NCBI GenBank assembly: GCA_030646915.1
Contig: JAUSKT010000012.1
Span: 4,663-68,662 of the forward strand
Source of the DNA: a bacterium
GTDB taxonomy: Bacteria > Patescibacteriota > Minisyncoccia > UBA6257 > 02-FULL-45-10c
Length of the DNA: 64,000 nt
Direction of reading: 5' to 3'
Each line of letters starts with the position of its first letter. Within the stretch, counting starts at the first letter, position 1. Positions 15,369-63,214 of the stretch are shown here, piece after piece. The translations under genes were made by a program, and so were the position numbers. The notes under the pieces are model-generated. The model had not been told where the DNA came from. It saw only the letters and a program-made list of their open reading frames with translations, and searched no databases.

Positions 15369-15418
15369 TCCCGTTAGAGGCAGAGGCGCGCTGCGTGTCC
15401 TCGTGGCCTCTAACGGGA
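15369..15418. mobile_element. TIR element, short GC-rich form (50 nt), intergenic between divergent promoters
   Basis: tcccgttagaggcagaggcgcgctgcgtgtcctcgtggcctctaacggga, flanked by TTG on both sides. The right-hand TTG is part of the rpsT -35 hexamer. Confidence 0.8.
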
Positions 15419-17343: not shown

Positions 17344-18327
17344 TTATAGCTTCTGGCACTTTGGGCAAAAATGCGCAGAACGCCCACCCAACTTTACCCG
17401 AACGATAGCCGTTTTGCATCTTCGGCAAGGCTCATCCTCGCGCTGATAAACTAGACGATAATCCGCATATCCCCCCTCTTTTCCCGAAGTATCCCGATAA
17501 TCGCTATAAGAAGTGCCGCGCAATTTCAAGGCCTTTTCCAAAACTTTTCGTATTGCCTTATACAAACTTCCTAATTCCTGATTCCCCAACTTATTCGCCG
17601 GCTTGAATGGATGGATTTTCGCAGCCCATAAAATATCGTCAGAATAAATATTTCCGATTCCCGCAATAACTTCCGGATCCATTAAAACTTGCTTGATTTT
17701 GCGACGCTCGGACTTTATTAATTTTACAAACTCCGCGAATTTGAAACTTGGGTCTAATGGTTCCGGCCCCAAATTTTTTATCTCCGGCAAATTTTCAATC
17801 TGTTCTTTGGTGCCTAAAAGGGCTTTGGCAAATTTACGAAGATCAGAAAGCGCCAACATTGCACCATCATCCACCCCGTTAGAAGCCGCCCTCGCTTTTA
17901 GCGAGTGGCTACGGCCACCTTGGGGCGACCTGCTTCTAACGGGGTCAAGATAAAAAATTAAATGAATATATTGATTATAAGGATCCTCAACTACTTCTTT
18001 CGGCTCAAGCGGAATAGTTTTTTTGCCCACGACTTTCCACTTGCCAATTAGCAGATGCCCGGTCATTTTCAAATGAATCAGCAATAAAAAATCACCGCTT
18101 AAATAAATTAAAATATTTTTTGCCCGGCGGACTACTTTTAAAATTTTCTTTCCTTTAATTACTTTTTCAAAAATCGCCACGTGCTTATGGGCTATTTTAT
18201 TTTTCTGCTGGTCAAGCGGGTCTTTGAGCATTTTCGGCCAATCAAACCAAACGCCGACTATTCGTCGGCCAACTACTTTCTTATTCAGATCATTAACTAT
18301 GGTTTGTACTTCTGGAAGCTCTGGCAT
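17344..18327 (-). CDS. mutM: Formamidopyrimidine-DNA glycosylase (Fpg/MutM) with an in-frame repeat insertion
   Basis: N-terminal MPELPEVQT, H2TH region and C-terminal Zn finger CRRCKTAI...CPKCQ. A 23-codon GC-rich insert lies at 17875-17943. Confidence 0.9.
   Translation of the reverse strand: MPELPEVQTIVNDLNKKVVGRRIVGVWFDWPKMLKDPLDQQKNKIAHKHVAIFEKVIKGKKILKVVRRAKNILIYLSGDFLLLIHLKMTGHLLIGKWKVVGKKTIPLEPKEVVEDPYNQYIHLIFYLDPVRSRSPQGGRSHSLKARAASNGVDDGAMLALSDLRKFAKALLGTKEQIENLPEIKNLGPEPLDPSFKFAEFVKLIKSERRKIKQVLMDPEVIAGIGNIYSDDILWAAKIHPFKPANKLGNQELGSLYKAIRKVLEKALKLRGTSYSDYRDTSGKEGGYADYRLVYQREDEPCRRCKTAIVRVKLGGRSAHFCPKCQKL
17874..17944 (-). mobile_element. TIR element, short GC-rich form (71 nt), in frame inside mutM
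   Basis: ccccgttagaagc...gcttctaacgggg, translated as PVRSRSPQGGRSHSLKARAASNG. Flanks are TTGA/TGGA (gene sense). Confidence 0.75.
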
Positions 18328-21938: not shown

Positions 21939-22043
21939 CCCGTTTAGAAAATTAAAATAAGTGTCTTGCCGACTAAATACTTCCGATAGTGCTCTATAAA
22001 ATTTTTATTGCGATTAAACATGGTTATTAATTTTCTAACGGGA
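21938..22043 (-). mobile_element. TIR element, long subfamily A (106 nt), on the 5'-3' exonuclease start codon
   Basis: TIRs are intact and the TGAA duplication is at 21934-21937 and 22044-22047 (gene sense). A 34-codon internal frame starts at ATG 22046-22048, which overlaps the tsaE stop TGA. Confidence 0.85.
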
Positions 22044-36777: not shown

Positions 36778-36882
36778 CCCGTTTAGAAAATTAAAATAAA
36801 CGTCTTGTCGACTGAAGACTTCCGATACTGCTCTATAAAATTATTGCTATGTATAAACATATTTATTAATTTTCTAACGGGA
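36777..36882 (-). mobile_element. TIR element, long subfamily A (106 nt), on the start codon of 35710-36777
   Basis: TIRs are intact. Flanks are TGCA/TGAA (3 of 4 match). The internal frame encodes MHPVRKLINMFIHSNNFIEQYRKSSVDKTFILIF. Confidence 0.85.
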
Positions 36883-39148: not shown

Positions 39149-40864
39149 TTATCCCCTTTGTTCCAATATTTGTTCGGGCTTGGTGGTGACAATTTTATCT
39201 TCAAGATAAGAGGCTATAACTTGGATTGCCACATGATTTAATCCGGCAAAAAACAGCCCCTCCCCAATTTTTGCTTCCAAGAGAAGGCTTTTTTCTCCCT
39301 CGGTTAAATTAAAAGTTTTAGCAACCATATCAATCATTGCCGGGGCCTGTTTTAAAAGAAGCTGTAAAGATGAGTTGGTAATAATCGGCCGGCCATATGG
39401 AGATTTTAAGAAATCTTCCACATCTTGAGTAATAGTAGTTACGCCCATAAAATATTTCCGGCATCGTTTTACCAATCCAAATAAGAAAGTGGCGCCATCT
39501 TCATGTTTCATAATTACCCAAGCTTCATCAATAACCAGCACTCGTTTTTTAAGATTGGCGCGGATTAAGTTCCAGATGAAATTCAAAACAATATACATTG
39601 CAATCGGCCGGAGTTCGTCTTCCAGGTCTCGGATAGAAAAAACAATCAAACGATTTTTAATATCCACATTAGTCGGTTGATTGGTAAATCCTCCATAGCT
39701 GCCTTGGGTATATTTATATAATCTTTCCGCAAGTCCCCGCCCGCCCTCCATATTTTCCATAACTTTTTGGAGGTCTTCTAAAAGCGGAGGCGCGGCATTA
39801 GAAAAATCTTTTCCGGGAATAATATCGTGGGAAGCGTAAGTTTCTGAAAGCGCCCTGTCTAAAATCGCATCTTCTTCGGGAGTAATTTTTCCAAGCATTA
39901 TTTTTAAAAGTCCGGCTAAGTTTACGATATGGGAACGAAGAACATCACTAGGATCTTCGTCTGTAGGAATTATCGGAATATCAAAAGGATTGACGTGGTG
40001 ATCAGATGCTAAAGAAATTTTAAAATAGCTTCCGCCGACGGCGGCAGTAAGATTTTCATATTCATTTTCCGGATCAATAACAATGACATCTATTCCAAGC
40101 ATCAAAAGCCTTAAAATTTCCAGTTTAGTGGCATAAGATTTTCCACTTCCAGATTTGGCGAAAATCACCATATTGGCATTTTCTAAAGAAAATCGGTCGA
40201 AAATTACAAGCGTATTATTAAGCCGGTTAATGCCATACATAAGGCCGTCATTTGAAGTAAGTTCAGAGGAGGTAAAGGGAAAGACAGAAGAAAGCGGGCC
40301 GGAATTCAATGGTGAATGGATTAATAATTTATCTTGGCCGATAGGCAGAGTTGATCCAAAGCCTTCTAATTGTTGAAAAAGCGCCGGTTTGACATAGATC
40401 AGGCGGCTTTCGAGTAAAGAGGTTATTTTATTTTCTAATTTATGGAGAGCTTCTATAGTATCGGCATAAACAGTGATATAGACGCCGACATTAAATAAAT
40501 GTTCTCTTGATTGCTGTAAAGAATCCCGCAAAGATTCAATGTCTTGAAAGGCGGTTTCTAGCATAGGATCGCGCACCATTCCCTTCTCCTGCCTTTCAAT
40601 TACTTGAGATTCTACTTGAGCAGCCTTTTTACGGAGTCTTTTAAGGGCCATTGGCGTTTCTACTGGATGAATAAAGATGGAAATATCCAGAAGTTCCGGC
40701 ATATCAATAATTCCGGAAAACCAGCCAGTGGCCAAATATCTGGGATAAGTAAAAATGAAAATAGTTTTTACAAACTTATCTCCAAGTTTTAAATAATTGG
40801 AATTCACTTCCAGCGCCGGTGGCGCAATTGCATTGATTAAATTTTTATTTTGTTCTTCAGCCAT
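39149..40864 (-). CDS. virB4: VirB4/TrbE/PrgJ-type conjugation/T4SS ATPase
   Basis: 571 aa with Walker A AKSGSGKSY, Walker B VLVIDEAW and a C-terminal TTITQDVEDF region. Confidence 0.8.
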   Translation of the reverse strand: MAEEQNKNLINAIAPPALEVNSNYLKLGDKFVKTIFIFTYPRYLATGWFSGIIDMPELLDISIFIHPVETPMALKRLRKKAAQVESQVIERQEKGMVRDPMLETAFQDIESLRDSLQQSREHLFNVGVYITVYADTIEALHKLENKITSLLESRLIYVKPALFQQLEGFGSTLPIGQDKLLIHSPLNSGPLSSVFPFTSSELTSNDGLMYGINRLNNTLVIFDRFSLENANMVIFAKSGSGKSYATKLEILRLLMLGIDVIVIDPENEYENLTAAVGGSYFKISLASDHHVNPFDIPIIPTDEDPSDVLRSHIVNLAGLLKIMLGKITPEEDAILDRALSETYASHDIIPGKDFSNAAPPLLEDLQKVMENMEGGRGLAERLYKYTQGSYGGFTNQPTNVDIKNRLIVFSIRDLEDELRPIAMYIVLNFIWNLIRANLKKRVLVIDEAWVIMKHEDGATFLFGLVKRCRKYFMGVTTITQDVEDFLKSPYGRPIITNSSLQLLLKQAPAMIDMVAKTFNLTEGEKSLLLEAKIGEGLFFAGLNHVAIQVIASYLEDKIVTTKPEQILEQRG

Positions 40865-40968
40865 CCCGTTAGAAAATTAAATTAAACATCTTGCCGACTA
40901 AAGACTTCCGATATTGCTCTATAAAATTTTGGTTTAGTTTAAACATATTTATTAATTTTCTAACGGGA
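40864..40968 (-). mobile_element. TIR element, long subfamily A (105 nt), on the virB4 start codon; supplies the stop codon of the upstream gene
   Basis: TIRs are intact and no flanking duplication is seen. The TAG of ORF 40960-41631 (40960-40962) lies inside the element terminus cccgTTAGaaaa. Confidence 0.85.
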
Positions 40969-41631
40969 TTCTTCTCCGCCTATTTCCACTCCTCTTTTTT
41001 CGGTGGTGGCTGGATTATAAAGATTATAAAAAAGTTCAATTAATTCATCGTCGTTTAAGGGGACGGCTCGGAGGCCAATTTGATTTAAACCGTCAATTAC
41101 TTGATCTACTCTTTGATCGAGCTGTTCCTGGATTTCTTTAAGATTTTCTTTTTGAGCTTCGCCCTCACCGGCGCTTTTAGATTTGAACCAGCCGGTGATT
41201 TTTTCCGCGACATCCAGCCCGGCCTGGGGAATTTGGATTGGATCGTAAGGCACCACCAAAAAAAACCTCTTTTGCATAATGGCATTTTGAGAAACAAAAG
41301 CTTTGATGAATTCCCTGTATTCCACGATTTGATTCCGCAAAAGCTCGTTTTCTTCCTGGGTTTCCCGCTCTTCAAGCTTGGAAAGATACTCCTCTATATT
41401 TAATTTTCTGGAATGGATAAAAATTTGAATCGAGAAATCCAGAGAGTTTAAAAACCCCTGAAAGGCATAAGTAATTATTCCCTGCTCTTCTTCGGATTTC
41501 AGGGCAAAATTAGTGCCGGAAACTAAAAGGATTTTTCTAAGCGTTCCGCTTTTTAATTTAATTACCCCATCTTCTATCGATTGGATATCGATAAATTCTT
41601 GTGTAGGCAATGATTCAGATTTTTGCATCAT
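40960..41631 (-). CDS. Hypothetical soluble protein (T4SS-like cluster; weak resemblance to VirB4 N-terminal domains)
   Basis: 223 aa. The pattern GTLRKILLVSGTNFALKSEEEQ...IQIFIH parallels the N-terminal part of the following VirB4. Confidence 0.5.
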   Translation of the reverse strand: MMQKSESLPTQEFIDIQSIEDGVIKLKSGTLRKILLVSGTNFALKSEEEQGIITYAFQGFLNSLDFSIQIFIHSRKLNIEEYLSKLEERETQEENELLRNQIVEYREFIKAFVSQNAIMQKRFFLVVPYDPIQIPQAGLDVAEKITGWFKSKSAGEGEAQKENLKEIQEQLDQRVDQVIDGLNQIGLRAVPLNDDELIELFYNLYNPATTEKRGVEIGGEESR

Positions 41632-41645
41632 AAGCTTATTATATA

Positions 41646-42161
41646 TTATCTATAGTCTACTCTTTTAGCTATTTCCCTTTCTCCGGTGATTTTCCGCATC
41701 ATTTCAAAGCGTTCCTTGCTGCTTTTTTCTCGGTCAGTGATTGCTGGGGCGAAAGCTTTTTCTCTTTTTGGAACCGGCTGTTTGCTGGTTTTTAATTGAT
41801 CCCAAAGATTATCAAGCAGCGATTTCGCCTGAGTTATTTTAAATCCGCCGGTTTTTAATTTCGGTTCAGCTATTTTGGGAGCAGCCTCCCTTCTCCAGAG
41901 ATAAAATCTTGGCTTCCAATAAAAATTAAAAGCCGCAAACACGATTATTGATAATGGCCGCCCATTTACTTTTATAAAGGCAAAAGATAAAGAAATAACA
42001 GCCAATACGAAAGTTATTAATATCCAAAGCCAGAGCTGTAAAAAGAAGAAAAGAAAAAAACTTATTCCGCCCGCAGTTGCAACGTATAAAAACTGCTTCA
42101 GGGTAAGCGGTCCAATAATCCTGTCTTCGGTTTCTATAAATTGCGGGACTTGAAAGTTCAT
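41646..42161 (-). CDS. PrgI/VirB3-like membrane protein
   Basis: 171 aa with an N-terminal VPQFIETEDRIIGPLTLKQF followed by two TM helices, the PrgI family pattern. Confidence 0.6.
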   Translation of the reverse strand: MNFQVPQFIETEDRIIGPLTLKQFLYVATAGGISFFLFFFLQLWLWILITFVLAVISLSFAFIKVNGRPLSIIVFAAFNFYWKPRFYLWRREAAPKIAEPKLKTGGFKITQAKSLLDNLWDQLKTSKQPVPKREKAFAPAITDREKSSKERFEMMRKITGEREIAKRVDYR

Positions 42162-42268
42162 CCCGTTAGAAAAATAAATTATAACGCCTTACGACTAACA
42201 GGTTTTCTATAATGCAATTATAAAATTTTGAATTATCTTTACACATGATTGTTATTTTTCTAACGGGA
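42161..42268 (-). mobile_element. TIR element, long subfamily B (108 nt), on the start codon of 41646-42161
   Basis: TGAA duplication on both sides. The internal frame encodes MNPVRKITIMCKDNSKFYNCIIENLLVVRRYNLFF and ends at a TAA 4 nt before the ATG. Confidence 0.85.
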
Positions 42269-42272
42269 TTCA

Positions 42273-42301
42273 TCCCTTCGTTAGTATTGTCTCTAACGGG
42301 A
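42273..42301 (-). mobile_element. 29-nt stub of a TIR element in tandem with the previous copy
   Basis: Gene sense reads tcccgttagagacaatactaacgaaggga between two further ATGAAT repeats. It is 9 codons long and in frame with the downstream element frame. Confidence 0.6.
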
Positions 42302-42305
42302 TTCA

Positions 42306-43220
42306 TTATTTATTTTTTAAATCAATAATGTTATCGCCTGATTTTTCGAATTTCCGCAAATCAATCCTGTTTTGATCCGCGGGATTTTTTGGCGTTCCAA
42401 TATTAGTAATTGGGGTTCTTGGGCCGCTGTAGTGAACTACTCTAGCAGCCGGATTATTTTCGGGTGTTTCCAGTCTTACTGATACTGCCTTAGAAGCAGA
42501 TTTTTTTTCTTCAGAAGCCGGCCGCGAATAGTTTTGAATTTTAATAGAAAGATCCGGCCTAGCATTAAAAGTTGGCTTAGGGGAAGAAACTTCTGTTTCT
42601 TGATGTAAGATAAATGGAGAAGATGGCGCTTCCAAAGATTGGAGATCAATTTTAGCTTCCTCTTTTTTAGGAGCAAGAGATGGCTCTAAAAAATCTTTAA
42701 ATGATTTTTGTACGCTAGCTTGTCCTAGTGATGAGGCTGGTCCCGTTAGAGACTCCGCCCGCGCTTGCGCGCCCGAAGGGCCTATGGGGCGGGCTGTCTC
42801 TAACGGGATGGCTGCTGATTGTGTCGCTGGTTCAGTTGCAGGTTTTTGCGCGGCAGAAGCTGATCCTGGCTTGCCAAAATAAATTAATTTTACATCCACG
42901 CCAACATCCCGCCTTAATTCATTTTCAATTGGTTTTAAAATTTTATTTTCAATATCTTCGGCGATGGATTTTGCGGTTGTAAAACTAACCATAAGTTCGT
43001 GACTTAGGGCATTTATAAACTCCGTAGGTTCAATATCTTGGGTTACAAGCCTAAATATTAGCTTCGGTATAATTATTCCCCGTTCATTCTTTATTCCCAG
43101 TCTTTGGTTTATTTCAGTAACTAGATAAGTAGTTTGTAGGGAAGAAAGCCGCTCTTTAACGTTTGGGGGCAATGACTCAAATGCAGCCCCCAAATTTTTA
43201 AATTCTTTAGTGTCGTCCAT
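42306..43220 (-). CDS. Hypothetical protein with Ala/Ser/Pro-rich linker (T4SS-like cluster), carrying an in-frame repeat insertion
   Basis: 304-aa ORF. A 22-codon GC-rich insert lies at 42742-42807. Confidence 0.5.
   Translation of the reverse strand: MDDTKEFKNLGAAFESLPPNVKERLSSLQTTYLVTEINQRLGIKNERGIIIPKLIFRLVTQDIEPTEFINALSHELMVSFTTAKSIAEDIENKILKPIENELRRDVGVDVKLIYFGKPGSASAAQKPATEPATQSAAIPLETARPIGPSGAQARAESLTGPASSLGQASVQKSFKDFLEPSLAPKKEEAKIDLQSLEAPSSPFILHQETEVSSPKPTFNARPDLSIKIQNYSRPASEEKKSASKAVSVRLETPENNPAARVVHYSGPRTPITNIGTPKNPADQNRIDLRKFEKSGDNIIDLKNK
42741..42808 (-). mobile_element. TIR element, short GC-rich form (68 nt), in frame inside 42306-43220
   Basis: tcccgttagagac...gtctctaacggga with a TGG duplication. 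It is read in a different frame from the other intragenic copies (IPLETARPIGPSGAQARAESLTG). Confidence 0.75.
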
Positions 43221-43223
43221 GGT

Positions 43224-45107
43224 TTATAAATTTATGACTTCTACAAAGTCTCCTGGCTCAGTATAAGATTGAAGAGCAACATTATTTTTAATAAACTCCC
43301 TTTTCTCATTTAATGAAGTCAACGGCCCCCTTCTTTGGTCTTTATCATTTATTTGTGCGACGTCTACTATTGCTTTCTTAAGCGCCCTGACTATAGCCAC
43401 TTTTTGTTCATTAGTGCCAAATTTAGTTATTTGTTCTATATGGCCAGTGCTTAAACTTAAGAATACTTCAGGATTTTCTAGCGCTTTTGCCGAAATGTCA
43501 TCTGCCTCTTTAACTTTTATTTTTTCTACTATTTTTTTAATGCCCCCCCCTATTCGTTTTGCCAAATCCGGCCTTGCCTTTGTTATTTCTTTATCAGTTC
43601 CAAATTTTTGGGCGATTTTCATTAATTCAGTAATTCGATCATCGCTGATTTTAATATTTGGACTGCCTTCAATAATTCCTTTCTCTCCAAGGGCTGCGGC
43701 AATTGCTGCGGTTTTAGCAGGATTAGTTAGGGCAGTTGTGCTATTTGCTAAAGAAGCTAAGCCATCAGGAGATAAATTACTAAATCCTTTTTTATAATTG
43801 GCGACATCTTCTTTTGCCGTTGTAGTGGCGTACTCATTAATTTTTTGGCCCAGCGTTGAAAGTCCAGTTGAAAACAGGGGCACTGCTCGGCTTTGGGCCA
43901 GATAAGACCCAGCTCTCTGTAAATAACTTTCTTTCTTTTCTGCTGGATTAGCTCCAAGATTAACCGCCCTATCCCTTATCCAACTTCCAACTCCTCCACC
44001 TACATATTTTCCAGCCCCAATCGGTGCCCCTATAATCATATTTTTTGCTCCTTGCGCCGCTTGCATAGTTAACGCTGCGCCTTCAATTCCCATATCATTT
44101 GCCACTTTTAAGCCGATACTTAAAAGTCCAATTACCGCGATCATTTGGCCGATAACTTCTGGAGCATTTGCCTGGAGGGGTAAAAATTGTTCTGCGCCTG
44201 GTATCGAAACATTGGTTACCGCGCTAGTTCCTTTTTTATCTACTAGCGCCAGAGCAAGATAAACAAATAAAGAAGTTGCCGGAGCAAACCAGACCCATTT
44301 GAAAAATTCGCCCCACCATTTACTCCAGCTGCCCGCGGTTTCCGGCCAGATCCAAAGCAGGCAGGCAATCGGCATTATAACCAGTAAAATATTCAGCATT
44401 ACATATCTTATAAAAAGCATTAAAGAGAGTCCCATGAGAGAAATGCCCGCGATAACGGTAAAAAAGGTTGCAAAAAACATTGAGCCCAGGAAAACTACGA
44501 AAGTATTAAAATCTGTAAGACCGCTGGTTAAATTTCTTAAAGTTTCTACACTACCAGATGGCTGGGTAAGATTTTGAACCCTAAATGCCCCCGCAAGTTC
44601 TGCGCCAAGATTTCCTATATTGCCGCCAGTAGCCTTGCTGATAAAAAAGTCAGTCATTACGCCGGAAAAATCAATAAATACTCCGGCAATCACCAAGCTG
44701 AAATTTACTAGGAGCGCGGCGGCGATTAATTTCCAGAGAGTTTGCTTCATTGCGTAGCTTTCAATCCTAAGAATAGTGGCAAAAGAAATTAAAATTATTG
44801 CAAGAACAAATCCTAAATTGGCAAGATCTCTTGAAATTACCCAGCCTATTTTAACCGTGCTGCTTTGTAAGATATTACTGTTTAAATTTAAAGACCAATT
44901 AGCTAAAGTGCCGCCAAATTGGACAAAAACTCCCCCAACATAGCCAATTAAATAAGTGATGACGGACGCCCCCTTAGAAAAGAAAGTCAAAGATGCGCCT
45001 TCTAAAAAGCTCATTTCTGCAAAGGCTGGCCGAACAATTAACAATGTTAAAACTACAACAGCCAGAGCTATAAGAAAGAATTTTTGTTTATTGTGGATTA
45101 TCGTCAT
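43224..45107 (-). CDS. VirB6/TrbL-like polytopic membrane protein with a soluble C-terminal domain
   Basis: 627 aa with a signal/TM, about 7 further TM helices, and then a hydrophilic tail of about 230 aa. Confidence 0.5.
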   Translation of the reverse strand: MTIIHNKQKFFLIALAVVVLTLLIVRPAFAEMSFLEGASLTFFSKGASVITYLIGYVGGVFVQFGGTLANWSLNLNSNILQSSTVKIGWVISRDLANLGFVLAIILISFATILRIESYAMKQTLWKLIAAALLVNFSLVIAGVFIDFSGVMTDFFISKATGGNIGNLGAELAGAFRVQNLTQPSGSVETLRNLTSGLTDFNTFVVFLGSMFFATFFTVIAGISLMGLSLMLFIRYVMLNILLVIMPIACLLWIWPETAGSWSKWWGEFFKWVWFAPATSLFVYLALALVDKKGTSAVTNVSIPGAEQFLPLQANAPEVIGQMIAVIGLLSIGLKVANDMGIEGAALTMQAAQGAKNMIIGAPIGAGKYVGGGVGSWIRDRAVNLGANPAEKKESYLQRAGSYLAQSRAVPLFSTGLSTLGQKINEYATTTAKEDVANYKKGFSNLSPDGLASLANSTTALTNPAKTAAIAAALGEKGIIEGSPNIKISDDRITELMKIAQKFGTDKEITKARPDLAKRIGGGIKKIVEKIKVKEADDISAKALENPEVFLSLSTGHIEQITKFGTNEQKVAIVRALKKAIVDVAQINDKDQRRGPLTSLNEKREFIKNNVALQSYTEPGDFVEVINL

Positions 45108-47700: not shown

Positions 47701-48543
47701 TTATCGGAAAATATTAGCCAGAGACTTTATTTGTTCCAGTGATAAATTTTGCGGACGATCTAGGGGGTTGATATTCAGAAATTGCAGGCTTTTTTTAATA
47801 TCTTCTTCTTTGGTTTTAAGACCAGTCCTAAGGTTATTAAAGATTGTTTTTCTCGGTTGTTTAAAAAGAATGTGGATTAATTTGTAGTAATTTTGCTGTA
47901 GTTGTCTGTGGTTATTTGTAGTTGTTTGTGGTTTTGTCGTTAGTTTAATTACTGCAGAATCTACTTCCGGCGGCGGATTAAAATCCGCCGGTTTTAAGCT
48001 AAAAAGTATTTTAGGTTCTGCCCAGAATTGGACAGCAGCTGCCAGCAGATTCATCCCGTTAGAGGCAGAGGCGCGCTGCGGGCCCTCGCGGCCTCTAACG
48101 GGATTCATTCTCCGGGGTTGGGAAACAATTCTTTCCGCAACTTCTTTTTGAATCATTAAAACAGAAATATTAGGCTTATTATTTAATTCACTTAAAACCC
48201 TTAGCAGTTTACCGGTAATATAGTAGGGAATGTTTCCTACAAGTTTAAAACTTGAAGAATCAAGTTTAAAGCAAATTTTTGACAATTCTTTTAGGGCATC
48301 TCCGTGGATAACTTCTATTTTTTCTTCATGTTTAATAAGTTTTACCGCAAGATCTCGGTCTTTTTCAATTGCAATTAATTTGCAGCCAACCTTTTTACAT
48401 TCTTCTAAAAGCGGAAAAGTCAGCGCTCCATCGCCTGGACCAATTTCAATAATTGTTTCTCCGGATTTTAAATCTAAATCAGCAATTATTTTTTTAATTG
48501 CAGATTTATTTGTAAGAAAATGCTGGCCTAATTGTTTATTCAT
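47701..48543 (-). CDS. rsmA: 16S rRNA (adenine1518/1519-N6)-dimethyltransferase RsmA/KsgA with an in-frame repeat insertion
   Basis: 280 aa with LGQHFL, the SAM motif EIGPGDGALT and NIPYYIT. An 18-codon insertion lies at 48049-48102. Confidence 0.9.
   Translation of the reverse strand: MNKQLGQHFLTNKSAIKKIIADLDLKSGETIIEIGPGDGALTFPLLEECKKVGCKLIAIEKDRDLAVKLIKHEEKIEVIHGDALKELSKICFKLDSSSFKLVGNIPYYITGKLLRVLSELNNKPNISVLMIQKEVAERIVSQPRRMNPVRGREGPQRASASNGMNLLAAAVQFWAEPKILFSLKPADFNPPPEVDSAVIKLTTKPQTTTNNHRQLQQNYYKLIHILFKQPRKTIFNNLRTGLKTKEEDIKKSLQFLNINPLDRPQNLSLEQIKSLANIFR
48054..48103 (-). mobile_element. TIR element, short GC-rich form (50 nt), in frame inside rsmA
   Basis: Flanked by the direct repeat ATGAAT (gene sense; 48049-48054 and 48103-48108). 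Translated as PVRGREGPQRASASNG. Confidence 0.85.
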
Positions 48544-48665
48544 CCCGTTAGAGACAGGTCATCTTTAGATGACCGTAACTCGGCCGCCTAAACGACTCCT
48601 GACGATTAATTATTGATTCTGATTTTATATATATATTAAACATAGTTTAGTTGTCTCTAACGGGA
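48543..48665 (-). mobile_element. TIR element, long subfamily C (123 nt), on the rsmA start codon
   Basis: Ends tcccgttagagac...gtctctaacggga with TGAA duplications. The internal frame has an early TAA at codon 8, then an in-frame ATG leading to the terminal TAA. Confidence 0.85.
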
Positions 48666-48676
48666 TTCATAATTCT

Positions 48677-51840: not shown

Positions 51841-52013
51841 CTGCTCTAGCATAAACAAAACTAATTCGCTCATAGCGGAAATTTATCACCCTAGTCATTC
51901 TTCCTGGGTATCCCGATAAATTTCCTATTCGCTCAAAGTTTTGTAATATGCCTATGCAATGTTGGCTTAAAAATTGGTTTCGCTTACTGGTTTTAACTTG
52001 GTTTGTAAAATAA
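51841..52013. repeat. About 175-nt structured hairpin repeat (copy 2 of 2, inverted relative to copy 1)
   Basis: The reverse complement aligns with 12703-12880. The same stems are present but with different base pairs (aggaaatttatc/gataaatttcc, ACCC/GGGT in place of GCCC/GGGC). Confidence 0.7.
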
Positions 52014-52062
52014 TTTTTTAAAAATAAAAAAGCCCCAATTTACGTTTCCGTAAACTGGGGCT
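52014..52062 (-). terminator. Rho-independent terminator of the beta-CASP gene
   Basis: Hairpin agccccaatttacg/cgtaaactggggct followed on the minus strand by a long T/A run. Confidence 0.7.
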
Positions 52063-52074
52063 AAAGATAATTTA

Positions 52075-53550
52075 TTAGTCTATCTGAATTTCTTTAAGAT
52101 GAACTGCTCTTTTGGCTGGAATATTCAAGTTGGCCGCTTTTATCCGCCGCTCGAAGCCGTTGTAGCTATCAGTATCGCCATGGTGGCCGATGACTAATTC
52201 TACCGGACAGTATTCTTCGTGCATGCGAACAATGCGCTCAACCAATTTATCCGCGGGATCATGTCCTGAGAGGGAAAAATGAGCAACCTCGCAGCTTACC
52301 GGTATGTTTTTGGTTATTTCCCGGCGCTCTTTGGCGTCCCAAGTATTCATTTTGACGTTGCCGCCCTTTTGAACCTTGAGAACCTGTTCGCCAACGCTAT
52401 TCGGGAAAACATAGCCAGTAAAAGCTACAGCCGCATTTCGATTGGGAAGAATCCTTTCCGCATGCACCACGCTCATTCCTTTATCCATCATTGCCGATGA
52501 GCTGATGATCGGAGAGGGCTTTCCCATCCCACAGCAGTTTCCAAGGTCAGTATCGTGCCGGTGAATTTCTTCGCCAACTCGATCTTCTTGGGCGCTTTCA
52601 GCTCCGAGTTTCTTATAGGGAATTGCCAATTTATTTTTAATCAATGCGTCCAGTTCCAACTTGATGTCTTGAGGACACCAAGTGTAATTTTGGTACATTT
52701 GGCAGAATTCTCTGACCATTCCATCTACGTGGCAGGCAATCCCAATATCTGTAAGATCTTTCAGGGTTCCCGGGCCGCGATCTCCGAAGGATGGCAGGAG
52801 TAAGGGCATTCTTTTTTCTATCCGGTCTTTTGCCCACTCTCGGAATTCCTTCCGAAGATTAGCCATCGGAGCTTTGAGCTCGCGGTTGCCATAGGTAGTT
52901 TCCGTGATAATGATTATCTTCCGATTTTTCAGCCGATCGCCGAAAAATTCTTTCGGCGGAAGCATTACGCCTTTTATCAGCGGCTGATCGTGGGAAGAAA
53001 TATCACCGGTCACAAGATAAGCAAGCCCATCGGGCGGAAGAATGATGATCATTGTTGCGCCGCGAGTGTGGCCAGCAGAATAGAATCCAAATTCCCATCC
53101 AGGCCAGATTTGATACCAGCCGGGCTTAGGGATTTTTTGTGAACGCTTGAATAATGAGCTTATATCTTCTTCGTTATAGAAAAACTGCTTTGCTTCGCCG
53201 CCAGCGCGGATAATCGCTTTTTGTTCATTATTATGGATTTTGAGAGAATCCTTAAGCATGATTTCAGCGCCTCTGCCGGTCGGCTCAGTCATAGCAATTA
53301 TTGCATTCGGATTCATCTTGGCGATAAACGGCAATCCGCCGGAATGATCCAGGTGATGATGAGTTAGAAGAATCAAATCCAGCTTAGTTGAGAGTTCGGT
53401 CATTTTTGAAAGATAATTGGCTTCGCCAGCGGCTTTGTTGCCGATGGCCATGCCAAAATCAATGCAGATATTTTTTCCAGAAATAGAAAGTAAGGTATTA
53501 GTATTGCCAGGAGCCAGCCTTTGTTCACCAGCCTGCATTATAAGGCTCAT
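52075..53550 (-). CDS. Beta-CASP metallo-beta-lactamase nuclease (second, divergent copy) in an accessory island
   Basis: MBL motif LTHHHLDHSG, with beta-CASP motifs after ITETTYG, HFSLSGH and GHHGD. The start is set at MSLIMQ (53550), which is preceded by AAGGAGG. The track start at 53616 has no SD. Confidence 0.8.
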   Translation of the reverse strand: MSLIMQAGEQRLAPGNTNTLLSISGKNICIDFGMAIGNKAAGEANYLSKMTELSTKLDLILLTHHHLDHSGGLPFIAKMNPNAIIAMTEPTGRGAEIMLKDSLKIHNNEQKAIIRAGGEAKQFFYNEEDISSLFKRSQKIPKPGWYQIWPGWEFGFYSAGHTRGATMIIILPPDGLAYLVTGDISSHDQPLIKGVMLPPKEFFGDRLKNRKIIIITETTYGNRELKAPMANLRKEFREWAKDRIEKRMPLLLPSFGDRGPGTLKDLTDIGIACHVDGMVREFCQMYQNYTWCPQDIKLELDALIKNKLAIPYKKLGAESAQEDRVGEEIHRHDTDLGNCCGMGKPSPIISSSAMMDKGMSVVHAERILPNRNAAVAFTGYVFPNSVGEQVLKVQKGGNVKMNTWDAKERREITKNIPVSCEVAHFSLSGHDPADKLVERIVRMHEEYCPVELVIGHHGDTDSYNGFERRIKAANLNIPAKRAVHLKEIQID

Positions 53551-53660
53551 CTTTACTACCTCCTTTTTTTTGCAAACAAAATTTTGCGGGTTGTCTTTCT
53601 CGTGTTGAATTTGCAAAGAACTTATCTGAAAAAACTTTTAATTTTCTCGGATAAATTCTC

Positions 53661-53718
53661 TGTTTTAAAAATTGAGCCCGGGCCCCGATACGATTTTCAT
53701 CGTACCGGGGCTCCGGGC
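53661..53718 (-). terminator. Long GC-rich terminator hairpin after 53742-54455
   Basis: gcccgggccccgatacgat-tttc-atcgtaccggggctccgggc, followed on the minus strand by an A/T run. Confidence 0.65.
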
Positions 53719-53741
53719 TTCTGTCCTGGCGCCGGTTACCC

Positions 53742-54455
53742 TTAGCGCGTGTGGCCGCCACGTCGGGTCAGCTTCTCGGGCTTCGCGCTGGTCTGAGCCG
53801 ACGCGACTTCCGTTACGCCGAGGCTCTGCCCCATGGTGAACGGCTTGGACGACTGCTCCCGAGGCTTGAGCCACCCGAGCGACCGCTCGGCCGTGGCGTA
53901 CTGATCATTGAACTTGATCGCCTTGGCCTTGTCCTGGGTCTTCTTGATGAGCTCATCCAGCTTTCGGAGGCCGAACTGGACGGAGTTGTAGTTCATCCCG
54001 CCCTGGGGAACCACGCTTCCATCCTCGTGGACATTGAAGAGTTCGGCGAACATCTTCGCGCTGAATCCGCGCTTGCCGATCTCCTTCGTCCGTTCGTCTT
54101 CCGAACCCTTATTCACGGCCTTCAGGGCGTTCTTCAAGCTCAGGTACATGCTGGTCGCCTTCGAGGCGATCCGCTTGTCCCACTTGCTCTTGCCCTTGCC
54201 GAGGATGGCGACCGGTTCGTGGCTGACGCGGTACTGCAGGTGGTTGCAGAGTTCGACGATCTTGGACTTGTCGTAGTCCCTGACCGCGTTGCCCACCGTT
54301 TCCAGCGCCGTGACCTCTTCCATCCGGGCCTTACTGATCACGTCTTCCTTCCCGCTTTTCTCCACGGCGCGTACGTTGCCGTAGGCGGTGACGTGCTTTA
54401 CGAGGAGATCGGTCACCCGATCTCTTTCTTCCACGGACAGTGTCCTGTTGTTCAT
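53742..54455 (-). CDS. Hypothetical protein, the most GC-rich gene of the window
   Basis: 237 aa with AGGAGAG upstream of the ATG and promoter and terminator on the minus strand. Its composition is K/E-rich and protein-like, unlike the R/L/G-rich antisense ORF 53751-54479. Confidence 0.65.
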   Translation of the reverse strand: MNNRTLSVEERDRVTDLLVKHVTAYGNVRAVEKSGKEDVISKARMEEVTALETVGNAVRDYDKSKIVELCNHLQYRVSHEPVAILGKGKSKWDKRIASKATSMYLSLKNALKAVNKGSEDERTKEIGKRGFSAKMFAELFNVHEDGSVVPQGGMNYNSVQFGLRKLDELIKKTQDKAKAIKFNDQYATAERSLGWLKPREQSSKPFTMGQSLGVTEVASAQTSAKPEKLTRRGGHTR

Positions 54456-54532
54456 TTTTCTATACTCTCCTTGCCTTGATAGGCAGTGCGTCTATGTCGT
54501 TGCTTTATTCATGATGCAGGGTACTAAAATAA

Positions 54533-54588
54533 ATATTATCATAAAAAAAGACCCTTGTCAATACCCGCGTAGCAGGATTAACAAGGGT
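54533..54588 (-). promoter_or_regulatory. Terminator hairpin of 54601-55296 overlapping a TTGACA-17-TAATAT promoter for 53742-54455
   Basis: Hairpin acccttgt...acaagggt (54551-54588) plus a T-run. The minus-strand -35 is at 54556-54561 and the -10 at 54533-54538. Confidence 0.5.
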
Positions 54589-54600
54589 TAATGATTGAAA

Positions 54601-55296
54601 TTAGAGAGGAAAAGTCGGGGTATTTTTCAAAAATTCCGGAACATCAGTTGCCGTTATCCGTGAAACCATTACGACGATATTTCTTTTTTCATCGAAATTC
54701 GCGTCAATTTTGAGATAGCCGAATTCTTGAGATCTGAATGCCGGCGCTCCAAACTTGAGACGATACTTCACGAGAAGCGGATTCCAGCATTCGGTTTTGG
54801 AATACCAGTCTAGCCAGATATCACCATGAATTTCGTTTTCGGTTTGGTTTTGGTGCTGGATGGAAAATGCGGATTTTTCTTCGCGATCCGGAAACATAGT
54901 AAATCGGCCACAAAGAAGCCCGAGGACTGGCAGCGCTTTTTGGGTATGCCGGAAATGCATCCGCTGGAAAAGATAATCCAGGTCATCCGGAATTTTAGGA
55001 AAGGTAACGATGAGTGGTTTCGCGTCGGTCGACATCGAAAAAAGAAGTTCCTTTTCCAATTCAACTTCATTGCGAGTTCCAAGATGGCGGAGATAAATCG
55101 TTTTAGCTTCTGGCTTGCTGCCATCGGCATTCGGATCAAAAGCTGATATGCCATCCGGAAGAATTAAGCCGTTCTTTAGCGCGATTTCAAATTCAGATTT
55201 TAGGACCGTAGTTTCCAATCCCAGTTTCAATGCCTTTCCAATAATTCCCGCAAATCGCCTTTCAGGAGTTTGTTTGGGTGCGATGGCCGTTTCCAT
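54601..55296 (-). CDS. Hypothetical protein (accessory island)
   Basis: 231 aa with AAGGAGG upstream of the ATG. No recognisable family. Confidence 0.6.
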   Translation of the reverse strand: METAIAPKQTPERRFAGIIGKALKLGLETTVLKSEFEIALKNGLILPDGISAFDPNADGSKPEAKTIYLRHLGTRNEVELEKELLFSMSTDAKPLIVTFPKIPDDLDYLFQRMHFRHTQKALPVLGLLCGRFTMFPDREEKSAFSIQHQNQTENEIHGDIWLDWYSKTECWNPLLVKYRLKFGAPAFRSQEFGYLKIDANFDEKRNIVVMVSRITATDVPEFLKNTPTFPL

Positions 55297-55325
55297 GACG
55301 CCTCCTTATTCAAATGTGAACGAGC

Positions 55326-55381
55326 TTGTAACTTACAATATATTGTACACTATTTTTTTAATTTTGTAAAGGGCTTTACAA
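55326..55381. promoter_or_regulatory. Operator-like palindromes built on the TTGTAA/TTACAA half-site
   Basis: ttgtaacttacaa (55326-55338), ttgtaca (55343-55349) and ttgtaaagggctttacaa (55364-55381), lying between divergent genes. Confidence 0.35.
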
Positions 55382-55403
55382 AAATTTTTACTAATAATAA
55401 ACT

Positions 55404-55754
55404 TTGAGCATGCCTAATTTAAATGAAAAACAATTACAGGAATTAAAAGAACAATTAGAAAAAGAAGCTGGAGAGCTTGAGGCCCAGATGGGTTCAGTTA
55501 AAAAAACTCCAGAATTCGGCAGCGATGTTGAGAGCGATCTTTCAGAAGAGGCGGATGAGGCGGAAGAATTTTCCAATAATTTAGGAACAAAAGACGTTCT
55601 TAAAGAAAGGCTTCGTGATATTGAAGCTGCTTTGGATAAAATAATTAAAGGAGGATATGGAAAATGTGAAAAGTGCGGAATGGATATAGAATCAGAAATT
55701 TTGAAAGTAAATCCGGAATCCAGGCTTTGTAAAATGTGTAAGGCGGGAAAATAA
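55404..55754 (+). CDS. DksA/TraR-family C4 zinc-finger protein
   Basis: 116 aa with a coiled-coil N-terminus and C-terminal CEKCGMDI...CKMCK. Confidence 0.8.
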   Translation: MSMPNLNEKQLQELKEQLEKEAGELEAQMGSVKKTPEFGSDVESDLSEEADEAEEFSNNLGTKDVLKERLRDIEAALDKIIKGGYGKCEKCGMDIESEILKVNPESRLCKMCKAGK

Positions 55755-55758
55755 TGAA

Positions 55759-55881
55759 TCCCGTTAGAGACAACCAAACTATGTTTTATATATATCCAAA
55801 ATTTGAATCAATAATTAATAATCAGAAGTCAGTTAGGTGGCCGAGTTACGGTCATCTAAAGATGACCTGTCTCTAACGGGA
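55759..55881 (+). mobile_element. TIR element, long subfamily C (123 nt), on the comM start codon
   Basis: TGAA duplications at 55755-55758 and 55882-55885. The upstream ATG (55754-55756) overlaps the dksA-like stop TAA. The internal frame is 40 codons (MNPVRDNQTMFYIYPKFESIINNQKSVRWPSYGHLKMTCL). Confidence 0.88.
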
Positions 55882-58544: not shown

Positions 58545-58649
58545 CCCGTTTAGAAAATTAAATTAAACGTCTTGCCGACTGAAGACTTCCGATAATGCTC
58601 TTTAAGACAATTTAGTACTATAATCATATTTGTTAATTTTCTAACGGGA
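58544..58649 (-). mobile_element. TIR element, long subfamily A (106 nt), on the start codon of 57468-58544
   Basis: TGGA duplications on both sides (ATGGAT/ATGGAT). The internal frame encodes MDPVRKLTNMIIVLNCLKEHYRKSSVGKTFNLIF. Confidence 0.88.
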
Positions 58650-61560: not shown

Positions 61561-61827
61561 TTATTTTTTCAATCCCAATTTTTTAATAGTTGAGCTGTAA
61601 GATTTAGGATTTTTCTTTGAAAGATAATCCAATAATCTTTTTCTTTTGCCGACCATTTTTAATAACCCTCTTCGGGAATGGTTGTCTTTCCGGTGTTTTT
61701 TAAGGTGGCCGGTTAATTCCTCGATTTGCCTGGTTAAAAGCGCAACTTGAACAGCCGGAGATCCGGTATCTTTATCATGTTCCTGATGTTCTTTTAAAAC
61801 GTTAATTTTTTGCCTGACACTTAACAT
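61561..61827 (-). CDS. rpsO: 30S ribosomal protein S15
   Basis: 88 aa with [37 protein letters not shown]. Confidence 0.93.
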
Positions 61828-62263: not shown

Positions 62264-63214
62264 ATGGCAGCCATTGAAAAATCCTTAAAAGACTACTTAG
62301 ATTATCTGGAAATTGAAAAAAACCGTTCGCCGAAGACGCGAGAAAATTATGAACGATATTTAAAAGCCTTTATTGATTTTTCTAGAATTAAAAAACCGGA
62401 AGATATTACAATGGAGACGGTGAAAGAATTCCGGATATGGTTAGCGCGCAGTCCCGTTAGAGGCCGCGAGGGCTCGAAGCGCGCCTCTGCCTCTAACGGG
62501 ATAAAAAAAGTTACCCAGACTTATTACGCCATTGCCATCCGGAATTTTTTAAAATACTTGATTAAAAACGATTTTGAAGTTTTGTCTCCGGATAAAATTG
62601 AATTGCCGAAAATTCCCCGCCGGCAGATAGATATTATTGAATACGCGGATTTGGAAAGGTTTTTAAGCGCGCCGGCGCAAAATACTTTGCGCGGACTTAG
62701 AGACAGAGCTATCCTGGAAATGTTTTTTTCCACCGGACTCCGGATTTCCGAACTTTGCAATTTAGATAGGTATATTAATTTGGATAGAGGAGAAATCACG
62801 GTAAGAGGCAAGGGCGAAAAATTGCGGGTGGTTTTTCTTTCAGATCGGGCAAGAGCGGCTATAAAAAATTATCTGGATAAAAGAAGTGATACCACAGAAC
62901 ATTTATTTATCAGCCTTTCCAAGCAAACTTCTCCATTGAAAGAGCCGAAAGTTATTGGAAAAATCACTTCGCGAGCAGTCCAGCGGTTGGTAGAATTTTA
63001 CCGGCGGAAAGCTGGCATCGCCAAAAAAATAACTCCGCATCAGATCCGCCATCAGTTCGCGACTGATTTATTAATAAATGGCGCAGACCTCCGCTCGGTG
63101 CAGGAGCTTCTTGGCCATAGCAATATTTCCACCACTCAAATTTATACCCACATTACTAATAAAGAACTTCGGGAAATTCATAAATCTTTCCACGCAGCCA
63201 GGCGGAGAAAATAA
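62264..63214 (+). CDS. XerC/XerD-type tyrosine recombinase with an in-frame repeat insertion
   Basis: 316 aa with an N-terminal SAM-like domain (LEIEKNRSPKTRENYERYL) and catalytic R...HQIRH...LLGH...Y residues. A 16-codon insert lies at 62453-62500. Confidence 0.88.
   Translation: MAAIEKSLKDYLDYLEIEKNRSPKTRENYERYLKAFIDFSRIKKPEDITMETVKEFRIWLARSPVRGREGSKRASASNGIKKVTQTYYAIAIRNFLKYLIKNDFEVLSPDKIELPKIPRRQIDIIEYADLERFLSAPAQNTLRGLRDRAILEMFFSTGLRISELCNLDRYINLDRGEITVRGKGEKLRVVFLSDRARAAIKNYLDKRSDTTEHLFISLSKQTSPLKEPKVIGKITSRAVQRLVEFYRRKAGIAKKITPHQIRHQFATDLLINGADLRSVQELLGHSNISTTQIYTHITNKELREIHKSFHAARRRK
62452..62501 (+). mobile_element. TIR element, short GC-rich form (50 nt), in frame inside the Xer recombinase gene
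   Basis: 46 of 48 core positions are identical to the rsmA copy, in the same orientation and frame (PVRGREGSKRASASNG). No flanking duplication is recognisable. Confidence 0.8.

Follow-up and report, generated by a model that had tools for sequence, protein, structure and literature searches.

A small hairpin repeat inserted in frame in the rsmA gene of a Patescibacteria genome, and an apparently undescribed repeat family living mainly on start codons

The rsmA gene on contig JAUSKT010000012.1, which derives from a Patescibacteria genome and was analysed over a 64-kb stretch (the window), contains 54 extra bases consisting of a GC-rich core framed by ATGAAT repeats, and this raises the question of what these bases are, how they came to reside in the middle of a gene for an rRNA methyltransferase and whether they become part of the protein. 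Considering the evidence given below, they very probably represent a single copy of a mobile repeat, which is small, non-autonomous and shaped as a hairpin, together with a copy of its target. [quoted passage not shown] This family is apparently undescribed and widespread in Patescibacteria.

In gene sense (minus strand) the DNA at the insert reads ...CGG AGA ATGAAT CCCGTTAGAGGCCGCGAGGGCCCGCAGCGCGCCTCTGCCTCTAACGGG ATGAAT CTG CTG..., and the protein across it SQPRR-MN-PVRGREGPQRASASNG-MN-LLAAAVQFW, so that 18 residues are added, 16 coming from the core and two from the duplicated Met-Asn. The original prediction, which was made from the letters of the window, had described an in-frame insertion of 54 nt with a GC-rich hairpin core, and both descriptions hold, as the open reading frame (ORF) stays open throughout and the core possesses a GC content of 75% as compared to approximately 38% for the window average. 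The core is a near-perfect palindrome, and the 60-nt segment comprising the insert folds as RNA with -34.3 kcal/mol (z = -5.3, none out of 200 shuffles being as stable) and as DNA with -16.6 kcal/mol (z = -3.1). When at most three mismatches were allowed, the 16-mer ATGAATCCCGTTAGAG was identified 18 times in the window, with 0.67 occurrences being expected. The direct repeat ATGAAT had been read as a duplication of six base pairs; the repeat is present, but the duplicated part was found to comprise the five base pairs ATGAA, followed by a T which belongs to the element. The insert contributes three Arg and one Glu (net charge +2), and the junction peptides predicted from the sequence for a translated insert are ...QPRRMNPVR, IVSQPRRMNPVR, EGPQR and ASASNGMNLLAAAVQFWAEPK, while the insert-free form would read ...RMNLLAAAVQFWAEPK.

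Comparison with related proteins and genes revealed the same site with and without the extra residues. In the alignment with KsgA from B. subtilis a gap of 16 residues lies exactly opposite PVRGREGPQRASASNG, in agreement with the earlier claim that excising the core and one repeat restores a KsgA-like sequence. About half of the 40 nearest RsmA proteins read ...ERIxAxPPxMNLLAAAVQ... without any insert, and among 80 rsmA loci fetched from metagenomes, 70 of which have a readable insert site, approximately 60 are empty (...CCN CCN AAR ATG AAT/C CTN..., with the protein reading PP(K/R)-Met-Asn); the uninterrupted site which had been anticipated for orthologues is hence present in both samples. 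The empty target is ATGAAT or ATGAAC, i.e., the Met-Asn of the conserved motif. In a neighbour-joining tree of RsmA, from which the insert columns were taken out before building, filled and empty alleles form the sister pairs P0003/P0014, P0004/P0083, P0059/P0101 and P0019/P0097 (identifiers with P denote RsmA orthologues of alignment A1, those with L fetched loci). The rsmA segment is regarded as an insertion and not as an ancestral loop, because the site is filled in some and empty in others of closely related genomes.

The Met-Asn site was found to carry palindromes of 24, 27, 30, 48, 69 and 75 nt with at least three distinct arm sequences (Table 1), which are flanked by ATGAAT except for one with a mutated left copy. 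The site is one that has been struck independently by at least five different palindromes, and from several independent events at one site it follows that a mechanism recognising ATGAAT is at work. Other RsmA positions in members of the Candidate Phyla Radiation (CPR) were observed to carry repeat-like peptides as well, with ...LDSRLRGND... and ...ITNYQLPITN... occurring in P0059, P0083 and P0101, and in P0008, P0018, P0020, P0083 and P0107, respectively. CPR proteins may hence frequently contain repeat insertions in frame.

The insert belongs to a family whose arms, (T)CCCGTTAGAR...YTCTAACGGG, are 9-11 nt long and stand inverted around a variable interior. For the 10-nt arm, 26 occurrences were counted in the window as compared to 1.9 expected ones, and the arms pair into 16 elements which make up approximately 2% of the window's length. 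These were classified as type A (n = 8; 103-107 nt, AT-rich), type B (n = 2; 121 nt), type C (n = 3; 48 nt, GC-rich), type D (n = 2; 66-69 nt, GC-rich) and a single mini-hairpin of 27 nt, which stands in tandem with a type A copy.

Table 1. Copies of the repeat in the window, parts of the rsmA insert, and palindromes occupying the Met-Asn site of rsmA in this and other genomes. Flanks are given as left / right.
Feature	Position or locus	Strand	Flanks and remarks
Type A, 104 nt, AT-rich, on PolX start codon	1947..2050	-	ATGGAT / ATGGAC
Type C, 48 nt, intergenic	15370..15417	-	just upstream of TTGACA-N17-TAAAAT promoter-like site before rpsT
Type D, 69 nt, Y-shaped fold, in frame in fpg/mutM (17344-18327)	17875..17943	-	reads PVRSRSPQGGRSHSLKARAASNG
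Type A on start codon of 5'-3' exonuclease gene	21939..22042	-	ATGAAT / ATGAAA
Type A, 107 nt, on ruvB start codon	24190..24296	-	ATGGAT / ATGGAA
Type A on start codon of jag/R3H gene	35026..35129	+	ATGGAT / ATGGAC
Type A on start codon of hypothetical 355-aa gene	36778..36881	-	ATGCAT / ATGAAC
Type A on start codon of VirB4/TraG-like ATPase gene	40865..40967	-	AAGAAT / ATGGCT, without flanking repeat
Tandem pair on start codon of PrgI-like gene: 27-nt mini-hairpin (42274-42300) and 106-nt type A (42162-42267)	42162..42300	-	middle ATGAAT common to both
Type D, 66 nt, in frame in hypothetical 304-aa gene (42306-43220)	42742..42807	-	different codon phase
rsmA/ksgA, apparently intact host gene, 280 aa	47701..48543	-	carries both elements; ORF, Pfam, PDB, AF2/Foldseek
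Downstream flanking repeat ATGAAT in rsmA	48049..48054	-	Met164-Asn165, the original conserved Met-Asn of ...MNLLAAAVQ
48-nt palindromic core in rsmA, type C, 75% GC	48055..48102	-	read in frame as PVRGREGPQRASASNG, residues 148-163
Upstream flanking repeat ATGAAT in rsmA	48103..48108	-	codons Met146-Asn147; ATGAA is the duplicated target, T the element's first base
Type B, 121 nt, exactly on rsmA start codon	48544..48664	-	ATGAAT at 48665-48670 and 48538-48543
Type B on start codon of comM/yifB-like gene (55881-57416)	55760..55880	+	ATGAAT / ATGAAT
Type A on start codon of hypothetical 358-aa gene	58545..58648	-	ATGGAT / ATGGAT
Type C, 48 nt, in frame in Xer-like tyrosine recombinase gene (62264-63214)	62453..62500	+	flanks not ATGRA; reads PVRGREGSKRASASNG
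48-nt core at rsmA Met-Asn site	this genome, P0002, P0006		
75-nt insert at rsmA Met-Asn site	L120		48-nt core with nested further insert
69-nt Y-shaped relative at rsmA Met-Asn site	L153; by peptide P0004, P0005, P0059, P0064		
27-nt mini-hairpin at rsmA Met-Asn site	L025, Giovannonibacteria genome from separate element scan		
30-nt palindrome at rsmA Met-Asn site	L147, L194		other arms, CCCACRCATAGAA...TTCTATGTGTGGG
24-nt palindrome at rsmA Met-Asn site	L163		CCCCCACATAAAATTATGTGGGGG

Outside the window, a collection of 596 Gb with one genome per species was scanned with the 14-base pattern ATGRAT plus arm, and at least 119 loci were identified, which derive overwhelmingly from Patescibacteria of many lineages, including among the matches listed Kaiser-, Nomura-, Wolfe-, Jorgensen-, Yanofsky-, Ryan-, Taylor-, Lloyd-, Giovannoni-, Levyi-, Kerfeld-, Sungii-, Lipton- and Zambryskii-bacteria as well as bins labelled Saccharibacteria. 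The few matches outside the CPR mean little, as a pattern of 14 bases is expected by chance in 596 Gb. Within these loci at least 129 paired elements possess the same arms with highly diverse interiors and lengths from 27 to 281 nt (mode approximately 115-120 nt). The spread was identified to be patchy, as only two elements, both of them from the closest relative, were identified in 346 kb surrounding 80 further rsmA genes, versus 16 in the 64 kb studied here, which fits lineage-specific blooms of a mobile element. No Rfam family matched the elements at gathering or permissive thresholds, and full-text searching of the literature, arm sequences included, turned up no description of the family. 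A protein-database search with the translated element, for which three reading variants were joined, returned 39 candidates, with six weak matches. In IMG/VR, three out of 12 matches are complete elements with ATGAAT flanks (L202:10175-10215, L207:377-417, L211:150-251); phages could ferry elements between hosts on such viral contigs, an idea which was set aside because only these three matches are complete. Palindromes with other arms were found to follow the same ATGAA-T-CCC...GGG-ATGAA layout, namely CCCGCACCTTCT, occurring twice in L113 (707-822 and, on the minus strand, approximately 2035), CCCGTAGTAG in L018:6018-6160, CCCACRCATAGAA at L147:3050-3091 and CCCCCACATAA at L163:2960-2995. 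This suggests a superfamily which would be defined by its target and outermost bases, with the target, the T and the CCCG/CGGG ends being constant.

The element unit is [ATGRA]-T-CCCG...CGGG-[ATGRA]. Among the matches listed, a flanking repeat of 5 bp without mismatch was identified for 114 of the 140 elements, which in most cases is ATGAA or ATGGA and more rarely ATGCG, ATGTA, ATGAG or ACTAA; as these rare pentamers are also duplicated, the repeat follows the insertion site and is no fixed part of the element. In the same set, T directly follows the left repeat copy in 111 of the 114 elements, the sixth base on the right is free, and no conservation was found around the 114 insertion sites beyond the pentamer ATGRA. 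Within the window the ATGRA flanking repeat is present at 10 of the 16 copies. Tandem arrays with one common middle repeat, as identified in the window (42162-42300) and in L089, L021 and L018, would be expected if a regenerated target can be struck again. The stem beyond the nine invariant arm bases shows compensatory changes, and type D possesses a conserved Y shape with covarying stems. An extra base in the arm is found in several subfamilies and only in the right arm (gene sense), with 12 versus 0 cases. ATGAA/ATGGA probably represents a specific target common to the entire family. Two of the copies which deviate from this layout deserve mention on their own. The one at 40865-40967 follows the Shine-Dalgarno (SD)-like sequence GGCGGAG and may have resulted from recombination between copies or from insertion between A and TG of the start codon, and the other flank of the intergenic copy at 15370, ACTTGT, recurs beside elements in the unrelated genomes L006, L019, L040 and L058, hinting at another favoured context.

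Each of the ten copies of types A and B which the window contains coincides precisely with the start codon of a sizeable ORF, all in one orientation, and the genes concerned possess no common function (PolX, 5'-3' exonuclease, RuvB, Jag, VirB4/TraG-like, PrgI-like, RsmA, ComM/YifB and two hypothetical proteins). Considered relative to the origin on the side of dnaA, copies simply follow the orientation of their genes. The long copy which had previously been noticed on the start codon of rsmA itself was identified as a complete 121-nt element with ATGAAT on both sides, and it folds as a single closed hairpin (-44.2 kcal/mol, z = -5.3). Out of 23 gene starts in the window which begin with ATGRA, nine are occupied, versus none of the 19 intergenic ATGRA sites that are no starts (Fisher p = 0.002), and in coding sequence 1 of 273 ATGRA sites is occupied, namely that of rsmA. 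Outside the window, 101 of the 114 elements with start-like flanks adjoin an ORF of at least 80 aa (among the matches listed).

At such copies the upstream ATG opens a mini-ORF, ATG RAT CCC GTT AGA..., and although pairwise identity among the eight type A copies is no more than 75-85%, this mini-ORF stays open in every one of them for 34-35 codons up to a TAA within the right arm (TTC TAA (A)CG GG ATG), with length differences between the interiors of exactly 3 nt. Depending on element length, the right arm supplies a TAA placed 4-5 nt upstream of the real ATG, a fusion in frame, or a TGA overlapping the ATG at ATGA targets. Among the matches listed the upstream ORF reaches the right arm in 43 of 109 elements, as compared to 13.6 for shuffled interiors and 21 for the flipped element; the mini-ORF of the rsmA start copy ends early (MNPVRDN*). 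Folded start-site elements bring both ATGRAT flanks next to each other at the stem's base. That the mini-ORFs are kept open supports the view that ribosomes may read through the hairpin and restart at the regenerated start, a process which would not be obligatory, and the mini-ORF is presumed to be coupled to the real start. An SD-like motif was identified for five of the 62 window genes, and -10-like (TATAAT-like) boxes peak 6-10 nt upstream of the ATG (e.g., 5839-6195, 12027-12698, 40960-41631, 61561-61827 and 62264-63214). For 107 elements elsewhere, again among the matches listed, the -10-like box peaks 6-7 nt before the left ATG and SD-like motifs occur in 15. This suggests that leaderless or very short-leader mRNAs are likely to be widespread in the organism; with many genes being presumably leaderless, the target would also be the five bases with which the transcript begins.

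In-frame copies were identified in four genes of the window, i.e., rsmA (48 nt), fpg/mutM (69 nt), the Xer-like recombinase gene (48 nt) and, in another codon phase, the gene of a hypothetical protein (66 nt). Fpg homologues in the PDB lack approximately 41 residues in the region of the fpg/mutM copy; for the Xer-like protein the PDB alignment is too divergent in this region to yield a clean gap at its copy. Taking window and fetched DNA together, nine in-gene copies with family arms (27, 48 x3, 66, 69 x3 and 75 nt) and two with other arms (24 and 30 nt) were identified, all being multiples of three, stop-free and 44-75% GC; the exception is a nested 62-nt copy in L033, whose length is not divisible by three. 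Outside genes, copies of 42, 49, 64, 65 and 74 nt, for example, were observed. That in-gene copies are multiples of three and free of stops points to selection on the translated sequence and argues against splicing or bypass, and the insert is presumed to be translated as part of the protein.

By homology the host gene is that of the 16S rRNA dimethyladenosine transferase RsmA/KsgA. The PF00398 (rRNA adenine dimethylase) match of 1.3e-43 is divided into two stretches by the insert, KsgA chains in the PDB match the protein down to 4e-28, and its nearest relatives are found in Patescibacteria (Harrisonbacteria, Wolfebacteria and others), the closest being 62% identical. The S-adenosylmethionine motif (GxGxG) EIGPGDGALT and the NxPY motif GNIPYYIT are present and invariant among orthologues. 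The AlphaFold2 (AF2) model, built on 40 orthologues, possesses a mean predicted local distance difference test (pLDDT) score of 89.8, shows the Rossmann methyltransferase domain and the helical C-terminal domain of RsmA/KsgA, and has KsgA structures as best Foldseek matches (TM-score about 0.75-0.85). The gene looks intact; given the open ORF, the conserved motifs and the confident model, a pseudogene, the possibility of which had been raised beforehand, appears unlikely. On either side of the insert the helices 133-140 (QKEVAERI) and 166-174 (LLAAAVQFW) are confidently placed, and residues 141-165 between them form a coil (mean pLDDT 56 and 49 in two 10-residue blocks). The region aligns to ADPSSKEYGS of B. 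subtilis KsgA, the segment which was swapped in the chimeric structure 6IFX, and the insert hence probably falls into the KsgA 'loop12' at the interface of methyltransferase and C-terminal domain. In the 30S-KsgA complex loop12 holds the rRNA helices h45 and h27 and helps to form the G1516 pocket, and its length varies among related methyltransferases, where it contributes to substrate choice (bioRxiv 10.1101/2021.09.15.460497; PMC9386465). Whether the extra residues fall into a surface loop, which had been posed as a check, is therefore to be affirmed as to the solvent-exposed, low-confidence coil, but not as to a neutral position, since the loop is probably the rRNA-contacting loop12; according to the model, the insert is a disordered, solvent-exposed extension of a length-variable yet functionally engaged loop and not an inert one. 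RsmA carrying the insert is nevertheless assumed to stay active.

Taken together, the following course of events is proposed. The element would insert at ATGAA or ATGGA, leaving the pentanucleotide on both sides, and as this target starts with ATG and is rebuilt, insertion into a start codon would be tolerated. The old ATG would then open a short ORF through the hairpin, usually ending at the right-arm TAA 4-5 nt before the regenerated start, and copies would mostly accumulate on the start codons of a largely SD-less, probably leaderless genome. The conserved Met-Asn codons ATGAAT halfway along rsmA would constitute the same target, where survival would be limited to variants which are short, rich in GC, free of stops and divisible by three in length, and these would be transcribed and translated. 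A further-reaching version, which is held tentatively, assumes phylum-wide Patescibacteria hairpin elements which home to the first five bases of genes, are translation-neutral by their own sequence and are moved as single strands by an unrecognised enzyme. Here, the left arm would read open as Pro-Val-Arg, the right arm would give a TAA, a fusion or an ATGA stop-start overlap, and short GC-rich derivatives would form benign loops at internal Met-Asn or Met-Asp codons.

Several points weigh against the proposal of a mobile, start-codon-targeting and translated repeat. Mobility is deduced from the distribution of copies only, because no transposase, HUH enzyme or autonomous copy could be identified either in the window or among approximately 1.3 Mb of fetched loci, to which the search for a parent insertion sequence (IS) extended and which are a small part of each genome. 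The census of the window is the only unbiased target statistic, as the genome scan was seeded with ATGRAT plus arm and target statistics from outside the window are biased accordingly. The enrichment on start codons could reflect purifying selection in a 91%-coding genome instead of targeting, and the ATGRA repeat is missing at the copies 15370, 17875, 40865, 42742 and 62453. The sequence fits equally a true 5-bp duplication and an element which brings its own right-hand ATGAA to the 3' side of an identical target. The case for translation is built on reading-frame constraints. Finally, loop12 is functionally important in KsgA, so that the insert may impair the enzyme, and in CPR rsmA counts among those ribosome-biogenesis genes which are less conserved (PMC12641178).

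Among the alternatives, an ancestral, lineage-specific loop of CPR RsmA would account for the similar-length segment which several orthologues possess at the same position, and its presence throughout the phylum had been named by the original prediction as the finding which would overturn it. Yet orthologues were found to be mostly empty with an uninterrupted ATGAAT/C site, filled and empty alleles are sister taxa, the segment copies a dispersed repeat which also occurs outside genes and whose dispersed copies are no rsmA fragments, and it combines a flanking direct repeat with 75% GC in an AT-rich gene; such an origin is considered improbable in the extreme. Hardly more credible is removal or skipping at the RNA level, be it intron-like excision between the ATGAAT repeats or a programmed bypass, in which ribosomes would leave at the first AAU and resume at the second. 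In its favour, take-off and landing could use one and the same sequence (AUGAAU), a hairpin of very high stability starts at the base right after the first AUGAAU, and a GC-rich mobile hairpin in an AT-rich gene is reminiscent of mitochondrial byp elements. The constraint on length (all in-gene copies but one) and on stops in the host frame (all copies) would however be needless if the segment were skipped, the codon after take-off is CCC and hence neither a stop nor rare, no intron-like Rfam family matches, and the start-site mini-ORFs, kept open above chance, argue that ribosomes traverse the hairpins.

With regard to the mode of movement, a single-strand, hairpin-directed process of the IS200/IS605 or REP-RAYT type is tentatively favoured over a classical transposase, as a rough and subjective estimate, because the target is non-palindromic, the ends are asymmetric, the bulge is confined to the right arm, the stems covary and units of 24-27 nt have intact repeats. 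Ordinary MITEs, moved by a classical DDE transposase with a 5-bp staggered cut and an unusually strong target preference, appear rather unlikely. Terminal inverted repeats, a 5-bp direct repeat, small size, many copies and tandem or nested arrangements would be in line with this, and bcr1 of Bacillus cereus possesses a specific 5-bp duplication, TTTAT. Opposed to it are the non-palindromic target, the asymmetric ends with T on the left only, the side-specific arm bulge (12 versus 0), units of 24-27 nt, which are too short to bring two double-stranded ends together unless they have shrunk in place, and the failure to find an IS with matching ends in the window or the fetched loci. A site-specific recombinase as mover is, again roughly and subjectively, regarded as unlikely. 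A Pfam scan of 60 window ORFs identified no transposase or HUH domain and only the Xer-like tyrosine recombinase, which is itself interrupted by a copy, and of the arm pairs 0.4-4 kb apart, which were looked for in 119 loci and the window, the parent candidates in L119, L062, L075 and L026 were rejected, as they enclose ordinary genes. Retention for the benefit of the host is compatible with a mobile origin and would mean that 5' hairpins tune translation or stability of leaderless mRNAs and that the basic loop12 extension alters rRNA recognition. This is likewise considered unlikely: arms are conserved across very distant CPR lineages, frame and stop of the upstream ORF are conserved, the association with start sites exceeds mere sequence availability, and loop12 is an RNA-recognition loop of variable length which gains a charge of +2, whereas the ten start-site genes have no function in common, the distribution is patchy (2 elements per 346 kb versus 16 per 64 kb), most orthologues do without the insert and interiors are unrelated between subfamilies.

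Among known systems, the parallel to the RPEs which had been drawn from the rsmA insert proved apt, as four window genes carry in-frame copies. RPEs are dispersed palindromic repeats often found in frame in unrelated housekeeping genes, whereby the encoded peptide is thought to be compatible with the fold (PMC10969869). The present family likewise is a dispersed palindromic repeat in frame in unrelated genes (rsmA, fpg, the Xer-like and the hypothetical gene), but its arms are presumably unrelated in sequence, its host belongs to Patescibacteria, its in-gene copies measure 24-75 nt as compared to about 100-150 nt, and it possesses a defined pentanucleotide target with flanking repeat and most of its copies on start codons. 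It is seen as an analogue and not as a member of the RPEs, set apart by its host phylum and by a literature search for the arm sequences, which found nothing relevant. With MITEs (Correia/NEMIS, ERIC, RUP, bcr1) it has in common that it is small, non-coding and multi-copy with terminal inverted repeats and flanking direct repeats, and that copies would be co-transcribed with adjacent genes as hairpins; it differs by having no known parent IS, asymmetric ends and units down to 24-27 nt. Terminal inverted repeats, small size, lack of transposase capacity, multiple copies and flanking duplication, by which MITEs are recognised, were all found, whereby the duplication is indistinguishable from an element-borne right copy. 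Start codons are unmentioned in a 2024 review of prokaryotic MITEs (PMC10969869).

The hairpins, the ATGRA target, the orientation, which is fixed within subfamilies, and the side-specific bulge resemble what is known from single-strand systems. IS200/IS605-derived and REP/BIME (RAYT) elements are hairpin-centred, insert orientation-specifically beside a sequence of 4-5 nt, can do without long terminal repeats for protein binding and have very small minimal units. They are not known to leave a target duplication, while here the pentamer stands on both sides, which would require identical left and right cleavage sites and would fit only with a right copy belonging to the element; a Y1 HUH transposase gene was not found in the 64-kb window. 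Bypass elements (the gap of phage T4 gene 60, the 'byps' of Magnusiomyces mitochondria) and mitochondrial GC clusters are similar as GC-rich hairpins in AT-rich coding sequence with identical short flanks and mobile ancestry. Matching AUG AAU and a hairpin at the take-off site are indeed found here, but neither a stop after take-off nor an unconstrained gap, as the copies obey the frame (multiples of three, no stops) and are most probably translated. Coding palindromes with both arms translated have been reported for mitochondrial genes of Nematomorpha (PMC6649704); these are long, perfect, gene-internal and organellar and do not form a dispersed family with a target repeat. Two further candidates were rejected, the second as the simple explanation. 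Integron attC sites, with the inverse core RYYYAAC and the core GTTRRRY, would require the opposite polarity, since the arms GTTAGAG...CTCTAAC have GTT outside, and the context is start codons of housekeeping genes and not cassettes. A tyrosine-recombinase site (dif/lox/att-like, arm-ATGAAT-arm) is resembled by the joined ends, but the target flanks have no arm-like conservation beyond ATGRA.

For annotation this means that an additional hairpin occupies the start codon of about one sixth of the window genes, and that four out of 62 contain in-frame repeat segments which are predicted to be translated. Gene callers and protein-family models are liable to mis-set starts and to split domains, as the Pfam match of RsmA, already in two parts, illustrates, and knowing the family would improve CPR annotation. 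If true, a transposon family which targets and rebuilds the start codon would represent a new way to live in a compact, 91%-coding genome, and it may couple translation via its built-in stop codon. The palindromes at the rsmA site provide a naturally occurring set of loop12 extensions for an rRNA methyltransferase which is conserved universally, and this set can be used to gauge loop tolerance. The conservation of the arms over very deep divergence points to a widely distributed, as yet unrecognised enzyme which reads them.

Further features of the window were observed. DNA polymerase I appears to be split into two adjacent ORFs (19569-21047 and 21048-21938, minus strand), one for the 5'-3' exonuclease and the other for the family A polymerase domain, the exonuclease ORF having a type A start copy. 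An origin-type cluster at 30806-35555 comprises dnaN and dnaA on the minus strand and rnpA, yidC and jag on the plus strand, with the 490-bp gap between them (33476-33965) being a candidate oriC. Large membrane proteins are encoded in the minus-strand cluster at 39149-45107, along with a VirB4/TraG-like ATPase and a PrgI-like protein; the cluster may specify type IV secretion or a system resembling competence, and start-codon elements are found at two of its genes. Finally, the region 52001-56000 possesses a GC content of 0.44-0.47, as compared to 0.36-0.40 elsewhere in the window.

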